Source: Methanomassiliicoccales archaeon (GTDB lineage Archaea > Thermoplasmatota > Thermoplasmata > Methanomassiliicoccales > JACIVX01). Taken from it: a stretch of DNA of 64,000 nucleotides. The DNA is taken from the NCBI GenBank assembly GCA_014361295.1, contig JACIVX010000001.1:319924-383923 (forward strand), given 5' to 3'. Under the pieces are notes generated by a model. That model had not been told where the DNA came from, searched no databases, and saw only the letters and a list, made by a program, of their open reading frames with translations. Positions 30,911 through 36,685 of the stretch are shown piece by piece. A program made the translations under genes and the position numbers. Position 1 is the stretch's first letter, and the number at the start of each line of letters is the position of its first letter.

Positions 30911-31441
30911 ATGACTGACATCCGGAGGAAGGTTGAAGAAGATCGCGGCCTCCTCAAAAGAATTCAAAGCTATATTCCGGGCTTTAGAGGCTACAGATTT
31001 CGGGAAGATCTCAGAGACGCGGACAGGATGTTGAGGGCACAGCTGGCCGACAAGTTCGCCAAGCAGCGAAAACAGCTCGAAGAATGCAGATCGATTCTCG
31101 CGCAACACCAATCTTTTGAGATACTTGATGGAATTGGAGGGCTTATTAACCACTTCAAGAAGCTCGAAGGATTGATTTCTCATGCGGAAACAGGATATTC
31201 AGGTCTTGTCTCGGACGTCACAATACACGAAGAGGAACTCAACATGCTTTACGAATACGATTTGAGGATGCTAGAATTGCAATCATCGATATCTGCTGAT
31301 ATTGATGATTTGAGAGAGGGAGCGGCGAATGGAGACACGCAGAAGGTTGGAAAAATGATCGCGGATATTAAGTTCAAGGCTGGCGATTTTGAAGATCAAT
31401 TTCGCAGGCGCCTTAGAATCGTTGAGGGTACTGAGGTGTAA
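30911..31441 (+). CDS. Cytoplasmic coiled-coil protein of 176 aa, first gene of the cluster. Possibly a PspA/ESCRT-III-like adaptor (unverified).
   Basis: Highly charged heptad-rich sequence (LRAQLADKFAKQRKQLEECRSILAQHQ), no TM. Its stop is 4 nt before the next gene start. Confidence 0.5.
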   Translation: MTDIRRKVEEDRGLLKRIQSYIPGFRGYRFREDLRDADRMLRAQLADKFAKQRKQLEECRSILAQHQSFEILDGIGGLINHFKKLEGLISHAETGYSGLVSDVTIHEEELNMLYEYDLRMLELQSSISADIDDLREGAANGDTQKVGKMIADIKFKAGDFEDQFRRRLRIVEGTEV

Positions 31442-31444
31442 TCA

Positions 31445-32557
31445 ATGAGTATCATCGGTGCTGAAACATTCAAGTGGGAAGACGCCGACAAGAGAAATAA
31501 TATCATGTTCAGGATGCCCAGAAACATCCGATTTAACGACAACATCGTTGTGAGGGAAGATGAAATAGCAGTTTTCTTCCGAGACGGAAAAGTACTCGCG
31601 TATATTGATCGCCCCGATCGGTACGCGCTCACATCGATCAACGCGCCCGTCGTAGGGCCGATCGTGAAACTTCTTTCAGGTGTACAGCAGCAAGCTGAGG
31701 TCATTTATCTTCAGAAGAGAGTTTTCGATGGTAAATTCGGAAGCAAACAGCCGTACCCATTCAGAGATAAAGAATTCGGTCTTGTCAATCTCAGGGTTTT
31801 TGGGGAGTTTCGGTACAAAATATCATCACCCGCGAATTTCGTGAATCAGTTTGTAGGTACGCTCAACTTTGCAACGAGTGCCGAGGTTGAAGAGAGAATT
31901 AAGGAACAAGTTGTCATCCTCGTATACGATGTTCTGGGCGATATGAAAAACCAGGGTTTGGGCGTCGCCGATATTGCAAGCAACCTGACGACAATTGAAC
32001 AAGTCATCCTTTCCAGATCGAAGGATCATTTCGATCTCTATGGCATTCTCATCGATAAAATATCGGGACTTTATATTTCGCTACCAGAAGAAGTGCAGAA
32101 AGCCGTCGATACGAGATCCTCTATGCAAGTGCTCGGTGCTAATTATATTCAATATCAGACCGGACAGGCGATGCGCGAGGCTGCGCAGAATCCCTCTGGC
32201 GGCGCGGCTGGAGCGGGAGTAGGCGTGGGAGCGGGGATTGGGATGGGATGGACGATGCTTGACTCGATGCGCCAGGCACAACAGGTTCCACCTGCTGCAC
32301 CTCCGCAAGCTACCATCCAATGTCCGAGATGTGGCGCTCAAAACCTTGCCACTAACAAATTTTGCGCCGAATGTGGATCGCCGTTAACGGGAGCTCGGAC
32401 TTCAAAGTGTCCTAATTGCAGAGCTGATGTACCTCCTGGTTCCAAGTTCTGCCCCTCATGCGGCGCTAACATTTCATCGACGAAGAAATGCGGGAACTGT
32501 GGCGCTGACGTTCCTGTTACCTCGAAGTTCTGCCCAGAATGTGGCAAGCCGTTATGA
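31445..32557 (+). CDS. SPFH/Band-7-like (YdjI-type, Band_7_1) domain protein with a Gly-rich linker and three C-terminal zinc-ribbon repeats
   Basis: The N-terminal ~250 aa resembles the YdjI/Band_7_1 family (IVVREDEIAVFFRDGKVLAYIDRPDRYALTS). A GGAAGAGVGVGAGIGMG linker follows. Then three C-x2-C-x8-10-C-x2-C units: CPRCGAQNLATNKFCAECG, CPNCRADVPPGSKFCPSCG, CGNCGADVPVTSKFCPECG. Confidence 0.65.
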   Translation: MSIIGAETFKWEDADKRNNIMFRMPRNIRFNDNIVVREDEIAVFFRDGKVLAYIDRPDRYALTSINAPVVGPIVKLLSGVQQQAEVIYLQKRVFDGKFGSKQPYPFRDKEFGLVNLRVFGEFRYKISSPANFVNQFVGTLNFATSAEVEERIKEQVVILVYDVLGDMKNQGLGVADIASNLTTIEQVILSRSKDHFDLYGILIDKISGLYISLPEEVQKAVDTRSSMQVLGANYIQYQTGQAMREAAQNPSGGAAGAGVGVGAGIGMGWTMLDSMRQAQQVPPAAPPQATIQCPRCGAQNLATNKFCAECGSPLTGARTSKCPNCRADVPPGSKFCPSCGANISSTKKCGNCGADVPVTSKFCPECGKPL

Positions 32558-32589: not shown

Positions 32590-33333
32590 ATGGCATCAGT
32601 CAAGTGTCCGAAGTGTGGCGCTGCGGTTGCGATCGACGCTGGAACAAAATTCACGAAATGCGCTTTTTGCAGATCGGAAATATATATTGACAGGTCTGGC
32701 GCAGGATTTTATTATATCATTCCCTTCGCAGTCAGGGAAAATGATGCGATCGGCATTTTCAGACGGTGGGCTGCAGGGCCTTCGAGAGCCAAGGATCTCG
32801 ACAGAAAAGCGGAGATCGCGTCGGTTAAAAACGCATATTTCCCCGTTTACATGTTTAAAAGAAAAATTAATGGCAGGGAGCAGGTGTTTGTTGAGCCAGC
32901 TGCATCCACAACATTGCCAGGATTACATCGGTTAAAAATCCCTGCAGGGGATCTGAAAATTTTCGATTCGTCGTTCGACAAGGGAGGCGCAGAATTGATC
33001 AATCCAGATATTGAAATGTTGTCGTATCTCAATAACCTTCCCGGAGAGCGTGTGGAACAAGCGCTTGTTTTCTTTCCAATATGGAAAATCGATTACATCT
33101 TTGATGGAAAGAAATATGATGTAGTAATAGACGGGTCATCTGGTGAGGTCTTTTCGTCGATTTTCCCGGCTCGAAGTTCGATGGGTTACATGCTTGTTGC
33201 AATAGCAGGGTTTGTCGCATTTGTCGGTGAGGGGCTTCTCGCGGCATTCAATCTTCCGATCGCACTCATGTTGATGGGAGCCACTCTTATCGGTGTATTT
33301 CTTGCTGCATTGGTAGTGGCAAGGAGAATGTGA
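32590..33333 (+). CDS. Zinc-ribbon membrane protein, paralog 1 (N-terminal CPKCG...CAFC, novel repeated domain, C-terminal TM)
   Basis: MASVKCPKCGAAVAIDAGTKFTKCAFCRSEIY. Shared motifs YFPVYMF and FFPIWKIDYIFDGKKYDVVIDGSSGEV. C-terminal hydrophobic helices. Confidence 0.6.
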   Translation: MASVKCPKCGAAVAIDAGTKFTKCAFCRSEIYIDRSGAGFYYIIPFAVRENDAIGIFRRWAAGPSRAKDLDRKAEIASVKNAYFPVYMFKRKINGREQVFVEPAASTTLPGLHRLKIPAGDLKIFDSSFDKGGAELINPDIEMLSYLNNLPGERVEQALVFFPIWKIDYIFDGKKYDVVIDGSSGEVFSSIFPARSSMGYMLVAIAGFVAFVGEGLLAAFNLPIALMLMGATLIGVFLAALVVARRM

Positions 33334-34337
33334 TTATGGACATCACGATTAGCCTTAATTGTCCGGCCTGCGGCGGGGCAATCAGCATCGGCGAAGGCGG
33401 AAATGTTGTGATTTGTGAGTACTGTGGTTCGACGCTCTTTGTCGAAGGCGATAGCGGCGTTTATACTATCGCTTTTAAAAATAAAATCACAAAAGACGGT
33501 GCCCTAGTAGAATCGAAACGCTGGTGGTCTGAAGGATTCAAAGCAAGAGATCTGAAAAAATTGGGCAAGATCGTTGAATGCTACGCAATTTATCTTCCTT
33601 TCTGGAATATTGATCTGAAGATCGCAGGATGGATTTGTGGATATGAGGAGCATATTCACACTGATTCAAAGGGAAATGTGCATAGAGAGCGAATTCCAAG
33701 GGAAATCATGATCCTGAAAGAATACGCTTTCACCGAGATCGCCTGCGATCCGGGAGATTTGGGCATACGAAATATGAAGAATTTGTCTGGTGAGACGAGT
33801 TTTGAGGATTTCGAAATGATACCAACTTTTGAATCAACAACGAGCAAAGATGATGCATTGCAGCACGCAAAGGAAGATGCCTTCTCTAGGGCGCGTGATA
33901 GCACTCGATTGACAGAAATCACCTTTGAACGGCTTCATGTTCTCCCGAAGAGAATTTTTCTTGTTTATTATCCAATTTGGGTTGTTCGTTACGAATATCG
34001 AGATCGCATGTATGTTTGCACGATTGACGGTGTGACTGGTAGAATCATTTCTGGCAGGGCACCAGGTGATCCGATATTTCAAAGTCTCGCCGCGACTGCC
34101 GGGGCATCCATTGGGGGTTTGATCGCGGCAGCGGGAATCTTGATTTCACAGGCGGACCCCGGCATCGCGCTCGCTGCGATTGGAGCAGGTCTCGCCATTC
34201 TTTATGCATTCTATCGTTTCTTCAGGCGAGGTTCTGAGATCATTGTCGGCGATTTTAGCGAGAGGTCGTATTCACCAGGCGAAGTGATGAAGGAGATTTC
34301 CGAAGTCACGAGGAAATTTCAGAGGGTGTACAGATGA
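33330..34337 (+). CDS. Zinc-ribbon membrane protein, paralog 2
   Basis: LNCPACGGAISIGEGGNVVICEYCGSTLFV. Shared motifs YLPFWNID and YYPIWVVRYEYRDRMYVCTIDGVTGRI. C-terminal Gly/Ala-rich TM. Overlaps its neighbours by 4 nt. Confidence 0.6.
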   Translation: MIMDITISLNCPACGGAISIGEGGNVVICEYCGSTLFVEGDSGVYTIAFKNKITKDGALVESKRWWSEGFKARDLKKLGKIVECYAIYLPFWNIDLKIAGWICGYEEHIHTDSKGNVHRERIPREIMILKEYAFTEIACDPGDLGIRNMKNLSGETSFEDFEMIPTFESTTSKDDALQHAKEDAFSRARDSTRLTEITFERLHVLPKRIFLVYYPIWVVRYEYRDRMYVCTIDGVTGRIISGRAPGDPIFQSLAATAGASIGGLIAAAGILISQADPGIALAAIGAGLAILYAFYRFFRRGSEIIVGDFSERSYSPGEVMKEISEVTRKFQRVYR

Positions 34338-34921
34338 AAATCGTGCAGGTCAAATGCCCCTCGTGCGGGACGCCAATCCGCATGAAAAACAAAGAAAGTG
34401 TTTTTCTCTGCGATAACTGTGGAATGATGCATACGAGGAATCATGGTATCGAGAGAATCGATTACGAGATTGCTGAGTTCGCTTCGGGCGGCGCAGGCGA
34501 GAGAATGTATATGCCCTTTTGGCGGCTTTACTGCGATTTCTCTATCAGATCAAAGAATGTTGAAGGAGGGTCTTTCTTCCGTCTTGCCCAATGGATTAAG
34601 GGCGATAGAGATTCAGGAGCGCTCTTCGTGTTTATTCCTGCCTTCGATATTAGTCTAGAAGATTTTAAAATACTCTCCACACGCCTCACGCTAAATCCAC
34701 CTCATTATCGAACAACAATGAATTTTGGCGGTGTTGCGCGAATTCCTGTACTTTTGACGAAAGAAGAGGCGCGCGAACTTGCAGATTTTGTCGTCGTGAC
34801 GATTGAAGCCGAAAAACCAGGGGTTCTTCAGTATCTCGATTATTCTCTTTCTGTGAAAGACGAAAGGATCATTTATCTTCCATTCGTTAAAACTTCTTCT
34901 GGTCCTGTCCTCGCTATCTGA
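34334..34921 (+). CDS. Zinc-ribbon protein, paralog 3 (soluble, shorter)
   Basis: VKCPSCGTPIRMKNKESVFLCDNCGMMH. Shared motifs YMPFWRLYCDF and IIYLPFVK. No TM. Confidence 0.55.
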   Translation: MKIVQVKCPSCGTPIRMKNKESVFLCDNCGMMHTRNHGIERIDYEIAEFASGGAGERMYMPFWRLYCDFSIRSKNVEGGSFFRLAQWIKGDRDSGALFVFIPAFDISLEDFKILSTRLTLNPPHYRTTMNFGGVARIPVLLTKEEARELADFVVVTIEAEKPGVLQYLDYSLSVKDERIIYLPFVKTSSGPVLAI

Positions 34922-35034
34922 AGTGAGTGAGACATAAATCCATGAAAAGAAATTTGGAATTCGATGTAATTCATTCCAATTAAATTCCAAATTACTGATC
35001 AGACATAAGTCCAAATACATCAACCGCAATTATA

Positions 35035-35532
35035 ATGTTGATGTCTCTAGGCACCATACTGGCACTTGCATTTATTATTATCGGCATCATTATGCTAATT
35101 GCCGAAGCTGCTTCTCCAGGGTCTTTCATCCTCGTTCCAGCCACTGTCCTGATCGTTCTCGGCGGGATCGGTTTGGTGTCTCCGGAATGGTTGCTGAGCT
35201 GGTGGGCACCTGTTGCAGCAGTCATCGTTCTCATTCCCACAACGCTTGTCACAATCAAACTCTATCAGAAATTGGCTCCCCCAGCACCTCCCGAAACGAC
35301 GGTTGCGACTTCGCTAATTGGTGCGACTGGTATCGTCGTGAGAGAGGTTACACCAGATAATCTACGAGGAAAGGTACGAATCCAAAATGATATTTGGAGT
35401 GCGACCGCATCAAAAACTATACCTGTCGGGACGCGCGTCATTGTTAAGAACAGCGAAGGAGTTCATGTATTTGTTGAGGAATTGGTCGATGAAAAGGCAT
35501 CAATCAATGAGACAGGAAAGAAGGTGACCTGA
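35035..35532 (+). CDS. NfeD-like membrane protein, short form (TM plus OB-fold, no protease domain)
   Basis: N-terminal TM helices, a C-terminal beta-rich OB-like domain (VVREVTPDNLRGKVRIQNDIWSA), and its position immediately upstream of the stomatin gene. Confidence 0.75.
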   Translation: MLMSLGTILALAFIIIGIIMLIAEAASPGSFILVPATVLIVLGGIGLVSPEWLLSWWAPVAAVIVLIPTTLVTIKLYQKLAPPAPPETTVATSLIGATGIVVREVTPDNLRGKVRIQNDIWSATASKTIPVGTRVIVKNSEGVHVFVEELVDEKASINETGKKVT

Positions 35533-35557
35533 TGGAGATTTTTGAGAAATTCAAGAA

Positions 35558-36685
35558 TTGGGGGCAAGCAAAATGGATGTAATGAGCGCGGTGATACTGT
35601 CGCTTTTGTTGCTCGCGATTTTTACGGCGATAGGAATTCTTGCAAGTGGCATCAAAATTGTGAGACCTTATGAACAGGCCATTTACATGAGGCTCGGTCG
35701 GTTCGTGAGGGTGCTCAACCAGGGTTTTAATTATGTGACTCCACTGATTAATGAAGTTGTCAAGATCGATCTGAGAACACAGGTATTGGATGTTCCCAGG
35801 CAAGAGGTTATTACGAAAGACAACTCCCCTACAAACGTCGATGCTATCATTTACATCAAGGTCATTGATCCTACCAAAGCGTTCTTCCAGGTGACTAACT
35901 ACCGAATGGCAACGATCTATCTCGCACAGACGACATTGAGATCGATCATCGGAGACATGGAACTTGATGAGATCCTTTCGAACAGAGAGAAGATCAATCT
36001 CCACCTGAGAGACGTTCTCGATGAGGCAACGGACAAATGGGGCGTAAAGGTCGAAGCAGTCGAGATTAGGGAAGTCGATCCGGCTGGTAAAGTCAAAGAG
36101 GCAATGGAAGAGCAAACGTCGGCCGAGAGACTGAGACGGGCTGCCATTTTGAAAGCAGATGGTCAAAAAAAGGCAGCCATCCTCAACGCTGAAGGAGAAA
36201 AGCGAGCGAGGATTCTGCAGGCAGAAGGTCTCAGGCAGGCGAAAATTCTTGAGGCGGAAGGGGAGAGGCTCGCAACGATTCTACGAAGCCAGGGAGAAGC
36301 CCAAAAGCTTCGAATTCTGTCTCTAGGAGCGACACCACTTGATTCAAAAGCGTTGACTGTTCTTTCTCTCGATACACTGAAGGCGTTAGGGAGCGGACCT
36401 GCGACAAAATTCATCCTGCCGTTTGAGCTGACAAGACTCGTCGAAGGCGCGTCTGAATATCTGGGTATGGCAAGACAAACGCCGCCAAGAGATGCGAGCA
36501 AAATTGAGGATATAGAAAAGGCAGTCGGGAAGGTGGACGATATCCTCGGTCCGATACCGACACCAGAGGAACTCAAAAAGGAATTGAGATCACTTGAAGA
36601 GGCGATGGAAAAGGAGAAAAAAGAAGTCGAATCAATTGCAGAGGCCACTAAAAAGGACAAAGGTCGAAGCATTCAGATCGATTAA
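35558..36685 (+). CDS. Stomatin/prohibitin-family SPFH (Band 7) protein
   Basis: TM anchor, then the SPFH core IVRPYEQAIYMRLGRF...IDLRTQVLDVPRQEVITKDNSPTNVDAIIYIKV, with a long coiled-coil tail. Confidence 0.9.
   Translation: MGASKMDVMSAVILSLLLLAIFTAIGILASGIKIVRPYEQAIYMRLGRFVRVLNQGFNYVTPLINEVVKIDLRTQVLDVPRQEVITKDNSPTNVDAIIYIKVIDPTKAFFQVTNYRMATIYLAQTTLRSIIGDMELDEILSNREKINLHLRDVLDEATDKWGVKVEAVEIREVDPAGKVKEAMEEQTSAERLRRAAILKADGQKKAAILNAEGEKRARILQAEGLRQAKILEAEGERLATILRSQGEAQKLRILSLGATPLDSKALTVLSLDTLKALGSGPATKFILPFELTRLVEGASEYLGMARQTPPRDASKIEDIEKAVGKVDDILGPIPTPEELKKELRSLEEAMEKEKKEVESIAEATKKDKGRSIQID

Follow-up and report, generated by a model that had tools for sequence, protein, structure and literature searches.

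Gene layout of the locus

The window (the whole 64-kb stretch of Methanomassiliicoccales DNA that was analysed) carries a module of five genes on the + strand. The first encodes a 176-aa protein (p176; 30911..31441, +) and the second a YdjI/SamI-like soluble SPFH protein (31445..32557, +) in which a Gly/Ala-rich low-complexity linker joins a Band_7_1 domain to three zinc ribbons at the C-terminus. They are followed by three paralogs that were assigned by sequence to the YdjG/SamG family: paralog 1 (par1; 32590..33333, +; 247 aa), a compact member, paralog 2 (par2; 33336..34337, +; 333 aa from the ATG), a full-size member, and paralog 3 (par3; 34334..34921, +; 195 aa), a soluble and divergent one. 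The three co-directional open reading frames had been proposed in an original prediction made from the nucleotide sequence and were verified at the same coordinates. Neighbouring genes are tightly packed or overlap: the stop codon of par1 lies 2 nt before the ATG of par2, or overlaps an alternative GTG start of par2 (33330; 335 aa), and par2 and par3 are joined by an ATGA overlap; database orthologs of par2 start at the ATG (333 aa). An NfeD-stomatin (NfeD-Band_7) pair lies downstream of the paralogs (window positions 35035-36685, NfeD gene 35035-35532). A promoter and terminator scan of the operon with bacterial models gave nothing above chance and is not meaningful for an archaeal host; a tblastn search of par2 against plasmids gave no match.

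Domain anatomy and membrane topology

Each paralog begins with a C4 zinc ribbon of the form CxxC-x14-CxxC. The ribbon of par1 (32599..32679, +; Cys 6, 9, 24 and 27) forms four short strands in the AF2 model; those of par2 (33351..33437, +; CxxC at aa 9 and 27) and par3 (34349..34429, +; Cys 8, 11, 26 and 29) follow the same pattern. The four cysteines are invariant in both family alignments, that of par1 plus par2 (A1) and that of par3 (A2), and the predicted set of three tandem paralogs with an N-terminal zinc ribbon was confirmed.

Behind the ribbon, every copy of the duplicated motif quoted in the original prediction was found: YFPVYMF (aa 83-89) and FFPIWKIDY (aa 161-169) in par1, YLPFWNID (aa 86-93) and YYPIWVVRY (aa 211-219) in par2, and YMPFWRLY (aa 59-66) and IIYLPFVK (aa 179-186) in par3. 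When units 1 and 2 were compared by hhalign on the diverse family alignment, they aligned over 53 columns (probability 96.2, E 2e-9), and at the level of sequence the two Y-x-P-[FIV]-W copies belong to a helix-plus-strand unit that is truly duplicated within the protein. Unit 1 of par1 (32710..32898, +) consists of a helix and a long beta-hairpin with YFPVYMF (AF2 H50-61, E75-93/E96-103), and unit 2 (33007..33159, +) contains the PepSY-like hairpin FFPIWKIDY...VIDGSSGEV (AF2 strands E153-171/E174-181). In par2, unit 1 (33456..33680, +) runs from the KDGALVESKRWW helix to the YLPFWNID strand and unit 2 (33816..34070, +) from the TSKDDALQHAKEDAF helix to YYPIWVVRYEYRDRMYVCTIDGVTGRI, both supported by the hhalign comparison of the units; unit 2 aligns to FYVLLPVWMVSYDYERAEHIFAMNGQTGKV of YdjG. 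The first motif copy of par3 (34508..34531, +) has an invariant P-F-W-R in A2 and matches the unit-1 profile (E 8e-6); the second (34868..34891, +) has invariant Y181 and P183 in A2 and aligns to the second motif of the family.

The AF2 models of par1 (mean pLDDT 77) and par3 (pLDDT 81, pTM 0.78; compact and confident) are built of alpha+beta units with long beta-hairpins, and not of the bPH-like or beta-sandwich fold that had been considered beforehand. The body domain had been called unrecognised, and it does lie outside Pfam and NCBIfam models in searches with the paralogs, YdjG and family members, and has no solved structure. Pfam, NCBIfam and PADLOC searches of the three paralogs gave zinc-ribbon matches and one sub-threshold PepSY match only, the PADLOC HEC-08 match on par3 covering just the ribbon. 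A Foldseek search of the par1 model against the PDB gave nothing at E ≤ 1e-3, and PDB profile searches with par1 plus par2, par3 and p176 gave zinc ribbons or coiled-coil noise only. The PepSY match of par1 (aa 163-188; 13.9 bits, E 0.071) stays below the Pfam gathering score of 24 bits; sub-threshold matches were also obtained for 9 of 26 close family members (best E 0.0042) and for 6 of 130 diverse members (best E 0.015). The units differ from PepSY (PF03413) and the YpeB C-terminal domain (PDB 5boi) in their distinctive Y-x-P-[FIV]-W strand, and classical PepSY domains are extracytoplasmic, whereas the paralog domain is predicted to be cytoplasmic, with a zinc ribbon ahead of it.

Hydropathy, together with the AF2 models of par1 and par3, bore out the prediction that par1 and par2 end in Gly/Ala-rich membrane helices and that par3 is soluble. 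The two-helix membrane hairpin of par1 (33181..33327, +; AF2 helices 198-218 and 222-246, both supported by hydropathy) ends in VARRM. By hydropathy and sequence, par2 has a membrane hairpin of two Gly/Ala-rich hydrophobic segments (34074..34214, +; ~aa 247-293), also present in family representatives, and behind it a charged C-terminal tail of 40 aa (34215-34334, +). The Gly/Ala-rich hairpins leave almost no external loop. A single 19-residue window in par3 (start at aa 96, in predicted strand E94-102) reached 1.43 against a cut-off of 1.4; hydropathy gave no segment of par3 comparable to those of par1 and par2, and its AF2 model has no TM-like helix. Compared with the family, par3 is without the first helix, the last hairpin and the membrane anchor. 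The zinc ribbons, the two TM segments and the Arg-rich C-termini (VARRM, RFFRRG) fit a predicted hairpin with N-in/C-in orientation.

The PepSY-like score could also be read in another way, with the units as PepSY domains that face outward and regulate a protease or cell-envelope enzyme, as do YpeB or peptidase propeptides. We consider this very improbable: the score is below the Pfam cut-off, the paralogs have no signal peptide or N-terminal TM segment, a Cys4 ribbon at the N-terminus should lie in the cytoplasm, and anchoring is by a C-terminal hairpin whose ends are rich in Arg; par3 has neither a membrane segment nor an export signal, and the conserved module contains no protease gene. The paralogs are likely to form a complex that faces the cytoplasm, is anchored by the hairpins and docks or regulates the soluble SPFH protein.

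Relationship to YdjG/SamG

par1 and par2 matched each other over their full length by BLASTP (E 2e-16) and by profile-profile comparison (probability 99.6, E 7e-23). par3 shared with them the zinc ribbon alone by BLASTP, and its body minus the ribbon matched par2 with no better than E 2e-4. When the par3 family profile was compared with a 130-member family profile that includes YdjG, a colinear alignment over 164 columns was obtained (probability 97.8, E 8.5e-13), and the shared motifs thus go beyond chance similarity, as the prediction had supposed, for par3 as well as for the par1-par2 pair. Bacillus YdjG, in which the corresponding body with both repeat units comprises residues ~85-310, was matched by par2 (BLASTP E 4e-11, par2 8-243 to YdjG 55-309) and by par1 (BLASTP E 1e-7, ribbon and unit 1). 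The par3 profile aligned to the single YdjG sequence in the ribbon alone, and the family membership of par3 therefore rests on profile evidence. On these comparisons, par1 and par2 are sequence homologs of YdjG/SamG and par3 is a divergent soluble member of the family. A tentative mention of Bacillus YdjG as a functional equivalent turned out to fall short of the actual relationship, since par1 and par2 are homologous to YdjG in sequence and the SPFH protein is homologous to YdjI. The module had further been suspected to be undescribed, which is only partly so. One sentence of a published paper (PMC11237479) gives the architecture of YdjG as zinc ribbons, a domain called 'YpeB-related' and a TM segment, and the family is a large one that comprises at least 5,465 representative clusters at 50% identity.

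Many orthologs carry the automatic JGI name 'DNA-directed RNA polymerase subunit RPC12/RpoP'. Such names would fit membrane-tethered regulators whose zinc ribbons bind DNA or RNA and control transcription or translation, and further pointers in this direction are the annotations RpoP/RPC12, DUF1610 RNA-binding Zn-ribbon and 'TF_Zn_Ribbon known to bind DNA', the match of the first YdjG ribbon to Pfam Zn_Ribbon_TF (E 1.8e-12), a mention of possible DNA binding (PMC9239133), and RNA polymerase subunit P as the best PDB sequence match of the A1 profile (E 0.0018). The matches, however, span only the ribbon of ~30 residues, the other 160-300 residues being unrelated to RpoP, no HTH or other nucleic-acid-binding domain was found in the paralogs, and in their operon they are strictly linked to a membrane scaffold protein and not to informational genes; a nucleic-acid-binding role is therefore improbable. 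RpoP/RPC12 identity as such (~45-50 aa, ribbon only) was rejected, as the paralogs have 195-333 aa, a large extra domain and TM helices, and the matches cover ~residues 3-33.

Conservation, selection and gene fusions

Each paralog forms a separate, strongly conserved ortholog group of fixed length (247 aa, about 333 aa with a range of 331-339 aa, and 195 aa). For par1, 524 close homologs were found with a length nearly fixed at 247 aa; par3 orthologs have 195-196 aa and 49-63% identity across Thermoplasmata including Methanomassiliicoccus luminyensis. All three paralogs are under purifying selection (dN/dS 0.055 for par1, 0.092 for par2 and 0.106 for par3; 0.15 for p176). Invariant columns number 36 in the par3 alignment A2 against 13 in the joint alignment A1. 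In Methanocorpusculum, par1-like and par2-like genes are already separate. Single-chain fusions of par2 and par3 occur in P0377 and P0435 (Anaerolineae bacterium); P0377 has two predicted TM segments between its par2-like and par3-like halves, so that both soluble domains would lie on the same side of the membrane, which argues for physical association.

These data bear on the earlier view of the locus as a recent tandem triplication in graded decay, with par3 as a degenerating, truncated copy. par3 is indeed shorter than its neighbours, lacks TM helices and the last hairpin, and matches par1 and par2 by BLASTP in the zinc ribbon only. Its orthologs nevertheless keep length and identity across Thermoplasmata, the invariant columns and dN/dS speak for constraint, its AF2 model is compact and confident, and a par2-par3 fusion occurs in a bacterium; the distinct par1-like and par2-like genes of Methanocorpusculum speak against a recent origin. 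On the strength of the conserved fixed-length orthologs, low dN/dS and invariant par3 columns, decay or pseudogenisation was rejected, and the triplication-with-decay account has hardly any probability left.

The five-gene operon and its SPFH partner

In all 36 informative metagenome loci (those with enough flank) the gene order was p176, YdjI-like SPFH protein, par1, par2, par3, and the same order was found in the cultured Methanomassiliicoccus luminyensis. The NfeD-stomatin pair adjoined the module in only 6 of 43 loci. The proposed link to an SPFH gene was therefore retained for the upstream Band_7_1 protein, and the downstream stomatin was rejected as the relevant partner, as it lies outside the conserved unit. 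NfeD-stomatin pairs are alike in having a small membrane-anchored partner beside an SPFH gene, thought to dock to or regulate the SPFH scaffold; NfeD partners have an OB-fold C-terminal domain (PF01957), whereas the three paralogs gave no NfeD match.

The SPFH protein matched Pfam Band_7_1 (E 8.8e-33), DZR and Zn_Ribbon_1, has no TM segment and aligned to Bacillus YdjI over its full length (E 5e-14). Exactly three CxxC-x6-14-CxxC modules were present in each of 49 orthologs examined; their number equals that of the zinc-ribbon paralogs, which is suggestive only.

p176 gave no Pfam match and a weak match to NCBIfam LIMLP_15305 (E 6e-11) below the cut-off; in the literature, LIMLP_15305 was found only in a table that lists neighbours of sRNAs, which tells nothing further. 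No module protein matched PF04012 (PspA/IM30) or TPM, and phmmer searches with Bacillus PspA and YdjH against all open reading frames of at least 80 aa in the window gave nothing at E ≤ 10. p176 was also considered as a hidden PspA/ESCRT-III protein and rejected: neither BLASTP nor hhalign nor a PDB profile search showed such a similarity, and its profile compared with PspA gave E 0.44.

Since relatives of YdjG/SamG share a fixed five-gene operon with a matching SPFH protein, the operon represents a known type of membrane-stress module in an archaeal form, neither decaying nor wholly new.

Comparison with Bacillus and proposed role

B. subtilis YdjG (SamG) and the archaeal paralogs have in common N-terminal C4 zinc ribbons, a C-terminal membrane anchor (predicted in par1 and par2) and a body that is homologous over ~235-255 residues, the two Y-x-P-[FV]-W motifs and the DG-x-TG hairpin at its end included; both are encoded in one operon with an SPFH protein that combines Band_7_1 and zinc ribbon. 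They differ in that the one YdjG of B. subtilis carries two zinc ribbons and is anchored by one C-terminal TM segment, whereas its archaeal counterparts are three diverged paralogs, each with one ribbon, of which par1 and par2 have two-helix hairpins, par2 with the additional tail, and par3 is soluble. YdjI (SamI), the soluble SPFH protein that links PspA to the membrane, is likewise composed of an SPFH domain, a Gly/Ala/Met-rich linker and C-terminal zinc ribbon, although it has one ribbon where the archaeal protein has three, and the partner sets differ: the archaeal operon lacks the PspA and the TPM-domain YdjH of B. subtilis pspA-ydjGHI and starts with the unrelated 176-aa protein. In B. 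subtilis, deletion of ydjG or ydjH abolishes the membrane foci of YdjI and PspA, and by two-hybrid analysis YdjH contacts YdjI and PspA, and YdjG contacts YdjH (PMC8581546); for SamG, a role in anchoring SamI to the membrane has been described, and for SamI one in regulating SamGH (bioRxiv 10.64898/2026.02.06.704340). Because YdjH is absent and no PspA or TPM homolog was found in the window, this wiring cannot be transferred directly.

By analogy, the YdjG/SamG paralogs par1-3 probably serve, in their fixed operon, as a membrane-stress or membrane-maintenance platform docking or regulating the SPFH protein. These anciently diverged paralogs, in each of which a C4 zinc ribbon predicted to be cytoplasmic precedes two homologous alpha+beta units in tandem with a distant PepSY/YpeB likeness, are encoded with p176 and the YdjI/SamI-like protein as one fixed unit in Methanomassiliicoccales/Thermoplasmata. 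The C-terminal hairpins would hold par1 and par2 at the inner face of the membrane, par3 would be a soluble subunit, and together they may form a hetero-oligomeric platform under the membrane. The platform would dock the otherwise soluble SPFH oligomer to the membrane, regulate it, or both, in parallel to B. subtilis, where membrane localisation and foci of YdjI/SamI need YdjG/SamG and YdjH/SamH. The module may serve membrane-stress sensing or membrane maintenance, and the extra paralogs and p176 may stand in for the missing YdjH (TPM) and PspA.

The direction of control could also be the reverse, with the anchored paralogs as primary membrane-stress sensors or signal emitters, the SPFH protein as their brake and not their cargo, and signalling as the output in place of scaffold recruitment. 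Baur et al. infer that SamI restrains SamGH signalling in B. subtilis (bioRxiv 10.64898/2026.02.06.704340), hairpins with almost no external loop could report the state of the bilayer, and in P0533 a YdjG-like module seems to be preceded by a complete Ser/Thr kinase domain, as inferred from its shorter cluster mate P0502, which matched the family profile. The kinase fusion, however, is confined to one cluster, library searches gave no recognisable output domain (kinase, HTH, nucleotide cyclase) in the archaeal operon, and the proposal overlaps with a docking platform, from which it differs mainly in the direction of control. We consider it unlikely.

A platform that docks or regulates the SPFH protein remains the preferred interpretation. 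It can be extended, speculatively and at rather long odds, to a self-contained, PspA-independent archaeal membrane-maintenance machine in which each paralog would dock one SPFH zinc ribbon in a defined stoichiometry (1:1:1:1), helical p176 would be a new membrane-remodelling effector replacing PspA/ESCRT-III, and the ribbon together with the tandem PepSY-like domain would constitute a cytoplasmic adaptor fold that had not been defined before. If this were true, the adaptor fold would occur in at least 5,000 bacterial and archaeal protein clusters.

Implications

Within the Bacillus PspA-SPFH envelope-stress module, YdjG/SamG is one of the components understood least, and its body domain is, on sequence comparison, an internally duplicated unit in a very large family. 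Mis-annotations of this family as 'RNA polymerase subunit RpoP' or 'ribosomal protein S27AE/L37E' are widespread and need correcting. The family reaches Archaea, where it has diverged into three paralogs that are obligately encoded together and are coupled to a YdjI-type SPFH protein while both PspA and YdjH are missing; from the par2-par3 fusions, specific interaction partners can be predicted. For the PspA-independent role of YdjG-type proteins in SPFH scaffolds, the archaeal operon may offer a naturally minimal system, and as the cultured Methanomassiliicoccus luminyensis carries it, this role may be tested there in a simpler system.

Gene arrangement and conservation

The three paralogs are encoded in the same direction on the + strand: paralog 1 at 32590–33333 (247 aa), paralog 2 at 33336–34337 from the ATG used by database orthologs (333 aa) or at 33330–34337 from a GTG, and paralog 3 at 34334–34921 (195 aa). 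The paralog 1 stop is separated from the paralog 2 ATG by 2 nt, and the paralog 2/paralog 3 junction is an ATGA overlap. All motifs quoted in the original prediction were found at the expected residue positions, and the zinc ribbon proposed for each N-terminus was present as CxxC-x14-CxxC, its four cysteines being invariant in the family alignments. The C-terminal membrane helices were also recovered, as two terminal hydrophobic helices in paralog 1 and as two Gly/Ala-rich hydrophobic segments in paralog 2, the latter followed by a charged tail of 40 residues. Paralog 3 had been described as soluble and truncated; it is indeed free of any comparable hydrophobic segment (a single 19-residue hydropathy window, lying within a predicted strand, barely exceeds the cut-off), but its length is nearly fixed in orthologs and does not fit truncation by degeneration. 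PADLOC weakly matched residues 2–46 of paralog 3 (window 34334–34470) to the candidate defence protein HEC-08 (E 2e-5), a match confined to the zinc-ribbon region; its defence models matched nothing else in the module.

The window derives from a Methanomassiliicoccales archaeon; two proteins encoded in a MAG of this order, P0001 and P0241, match at 100% identity. Each paralog forms its own ortholog group of almost fixed length across Thermoplasmata. Among the matches listed, paralog 1 orthologs are typically 247 aa long (101/120; 62–94% identity to the window protein), paralog 2 orthologs are all 331–339 aa (56–100% identity) and 106 of the 120 for paralog 3 are 195–196 aa (49–100% identity), with 36 invariant columns in the paralog 3 alignment. 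Relative to L008, a relative with 89–94% identity, dN/dS was 0.055, 0.092 and 0.106 for paralogs 1, 2 and 3, respectively, at a dS of ~0.5. Paralog 1-like and paralog 2-like proteins are already distinct in Methanocorpusculum. Given the separate fixed-length groups, the low dN/dS and this early split, the triplication is ancient and each of its copies has been retained. The graded decay originally read into the tandem array is contradicted by the low dN/dS, the near-fixed lengths and the invariant paralog 3 columns, and that the paralogs are decaying duplicates is scarcely credible.

Homology among the paralogs and internal duplication

Paralogs 1 and 2 matched from end to end (BLASTP E 2e-16; profile–profile probability 99.6, E 7e-23). 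Using an alignment of 130 diverse family members, slices covering paralog 2 aa 41–115 (copy 1) and aa 161–245 (copy 2) were compared with hhalign, which paired the helix i-s-x-e-e-A and the following strand l-v-Y-x-P-f-W of both copies over 53 columns (probability 96.2, E 2e-9). By this comparison the motif copies arose through genuine internal duplication, as first supposed, and together with the BLASTP result it excludes chance matching. BLASTP of paralog 3 against paralogs 1 and 2 found only the zinc ribbon in common; the paralog 3 body devoid of its ribbon matched paralog 2 weakly (E 2e-4), and at motif level with E 8e-6. The paralog 3 family profile aligned colinearly with the 130-member profile over 164 columns (probability 97.8, E 8.5e-13), from ribbon through motif 1 and the T-K-E-E-A helix to motif 2. 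Paralog 3 very probably belongs to this family as a divergent member; it has no first helix, final DG-x-TG hairpin or membrane anchor.

Relationship to YdjG and YdjI

The Bacillus pspA-ydjGHI locus was located through a published ydjG primer sequence (PMC8581546). Paralog 2 (residues 8–243) aligned with YdjG (SamG) residues 55–309 at E 4e-11, taking in IYLPFWNIDL versus MYIPFWMFDL and YYPIWVVRYEYRDRMYVCTIDGVTGRI versus LLPVWMVSYDYERAEHIFAMNGQTGKV, and paralog 1 matched YdjG at E 1e-7; the link to YdjG that had been guessed at is correct and reflects true homology. The SPFH protein encoded just upstream (31445–32557, +) is homologous to YdjI/SamI over its full length (E 5e-14), with the same layout of Band_7_1 domain, low-complexity linker and zinc ribbon. 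It differs in ribbon number: Bacillus YdjI has one zinc-ribbon module, whereas exactly three of the form CxxC-x(6-14)-CxxC were counted in each of 49/49 orthologs examined, located here at the C-terminus (32300–32557, +). Three is also the number of downstream ribbon-bearing partner genes, and the equal counts may reflect one-to-one docking of SPFH ribbons with partner proteins.

Pfam recognises only the ribbons of YdjG and has no model for its body; across the 130 diverse members all recurrent Pfam matches were zinc ribbons, apart from a sub-threshold PepSY signal, and an NCBIfam scan of the three paralogs returned no model covering any of them. The only description found in the literature is one sentence on YdjG architecture that includes a YpeB-related domain (PMC11237479), so that the domain, put forward as undescribed, is so in the domain databases but only partly in the literature. 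Ortholog auto-annotations for all three paralogs ('DNA-directed RNA polymerase subunit RPC12/RpoP', 'ribosomal protein S27AE/L37E', 'YacG gyrase inhibitor', 'DUF1610 RNA-binding protein', 'DUF983') are misleading because they are based on the ~30-residue zinc ribbon alone. When 1.84 billion representative proteins were searched with a profile, 5,465 clusters passed E <= 1e-3, and 1,715 of them also passed E <= 1e-10; judged by these matches the family is large, and it is represented in Bacillus, Methanocorpusculum, Thermoplasmata and an Anaerolineae bacterium.

Predicted fold

The AF2 model of paralog 1 (pLDDT 77) comprised a four-strand ribbon, a short strand, a helix (50–61), a first long hairpin (strands 75–93 and 96–103), a poorly ordered loop, a second long hairpin (153–171 and 174–181) and two long C-terminal helices (198–218 and 222–246). 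In the paralog 3 model (pLDDT 81, pTM 0.78) the ribbon was followed by a long strand (56–75) bearing PFWR, helices and a last long hairpin (167–187/190–193) bearing YLPF. As modelled, the repeat regions of both proteins are alpha+beta units, not the bPH-like or beta-sandwich fold first suggested. Foldseek against the PDB gave no significant match and PDB sequence searches matched ribbons only; with fold searches largely uninformative and the PepSY signal sub-threshold, the PepSY/YpeB link stays a distant, sub-threshold resemblance.

The conserved five-gene module

The first gene of the module (30911–31441, +) encodes a 176-aa protein of unassigned function with 53 invariant positions, including I-P-G-F-x-G-Y-R...D-x-R-D-A-D; it had no Pfam match, no detectable similarity to PspA and only a weak NCBIfam match, to LIMLP_15305, a Leptospira family of equal length. 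The gene order of the window is repeated in M. luminyensis across seven genes, encoding the 176-aa protein (176 aa), a Band_7_1 protein with zinc ribbons (378 aa), paralog 1-like (247 aa), paralog 2-like (331 aa) and paralog 3-like (196 aa) proteins, NfeD (160 aa) and a Band_7 protein (363 aa). The last two correspond to a classical NfeD and stomatin-type Band_7 pair directly downstream of the module here (35035–35532 and 35558–36685, +). Among 80 metagenomic loci retrieved with the paralog 3 profile, the order 176-aa protein, YdjI-like protein, paralog 1, paralog 2 preceded paralog 3 in all 36 loci with >= 4.3 kb upstream, whereas NfeD and stomatin followed in only 6/43 loci with downstream sequence. 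Conservation thus extends over five genes, with the NfeD–stomatin pair as a separate, occasional neighbour; the proposed SPFH linkage holds for the upstream Band_7_1 gene and fails for the downstream stomatin. The 113-nt AT-rich spacer between paralog 3 and NfeD contains an imperfect inverted repeat (34943–35001; 19-nt arms TGAAAAGAAATTTGGAATT / AATTCCAAATTACTGATCA, 84% complementary, 21 nt between), which could be a terminator or operator dividing the two groups. No PspA or TPM (YdjH) homolog was found in the 64-kb window.

Paralog 2-type and paralog 3-type sequences occur in a single chain in P0377 (565 aa, ENA metagenome) and P0435 (604 aa, Anaerolineae bacterium MBN1139975.1). The fused paralog 2-type part includes its TM segments, two of which are predicted to separate the halves of P0377. 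These fusions suggest that paralogs 2 and 3 interact, and by sequence they show the pairing in Bacteria too. P0533 (721 aa, ENA metagenome) contains a complete Ser/Thr protein kinase domain and an AAA_16 fragment. These seem to precede a YdjG-like module made up of zinc ribbon, body and TM segments, as judged from its shorter cluster mate P0502 (558 aa, ENA metagenome), the one of the two picked up by the family profile. Such an architecture hints that the family takes part in signalling in at least one lineage.

Proposed mechanism

The mechanism proposed here builds on direct observations, namely YdjG/YdjI homology, domain anatomy, internal duplication, purifying selection, five-gene order and paralog 2–paralog 3 fusions. 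The N-terminal zinc-ribbon domains would face the cytoplasm, given that the ribbons are of Cys4 type, that no signal peptide is present, that the two-helix hairpins have Arg-rich ends and that paralog 3 is soluble; outward-facing PepSY modules are very improbable. That these ribbon proteins, two of them membrane-anchored, are nucleic-acid-binding regulators is also improbable. The three paralogs would join into a complex beneath the membrane, whose role would be to dock or regulate the soluble SPFH protein, or to do both. B. subtilis offers a precedent by analogy: loss of ydjG or ydjH abolishes YdjI and PspA membrane foci (PMC8581546), and SamI is reported to restrain SamGH (bioRxiv 10.64898/2026.02.06.704340). 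A rival reading treats the paralogs as the primary sensors and the SPFH protein as their brake; it accords with the latter report and is considered rather unlikely next to docking or regulation by the paralog complex. In Bacillus two-hybrid assays contact to YdjI and PspA was made through YdjH, not YdjG (PMC8581546); with YdjH and PspA missing here, the archaeal wiring must differ. The module is an archaeal form of a known system, with three paralogs and a new 176-aa partner and devoid of PspA and YdjH. It provides a clean, testable way into a very widespread, uncharacterised domain, for which M. luminyensis is a cultured host.
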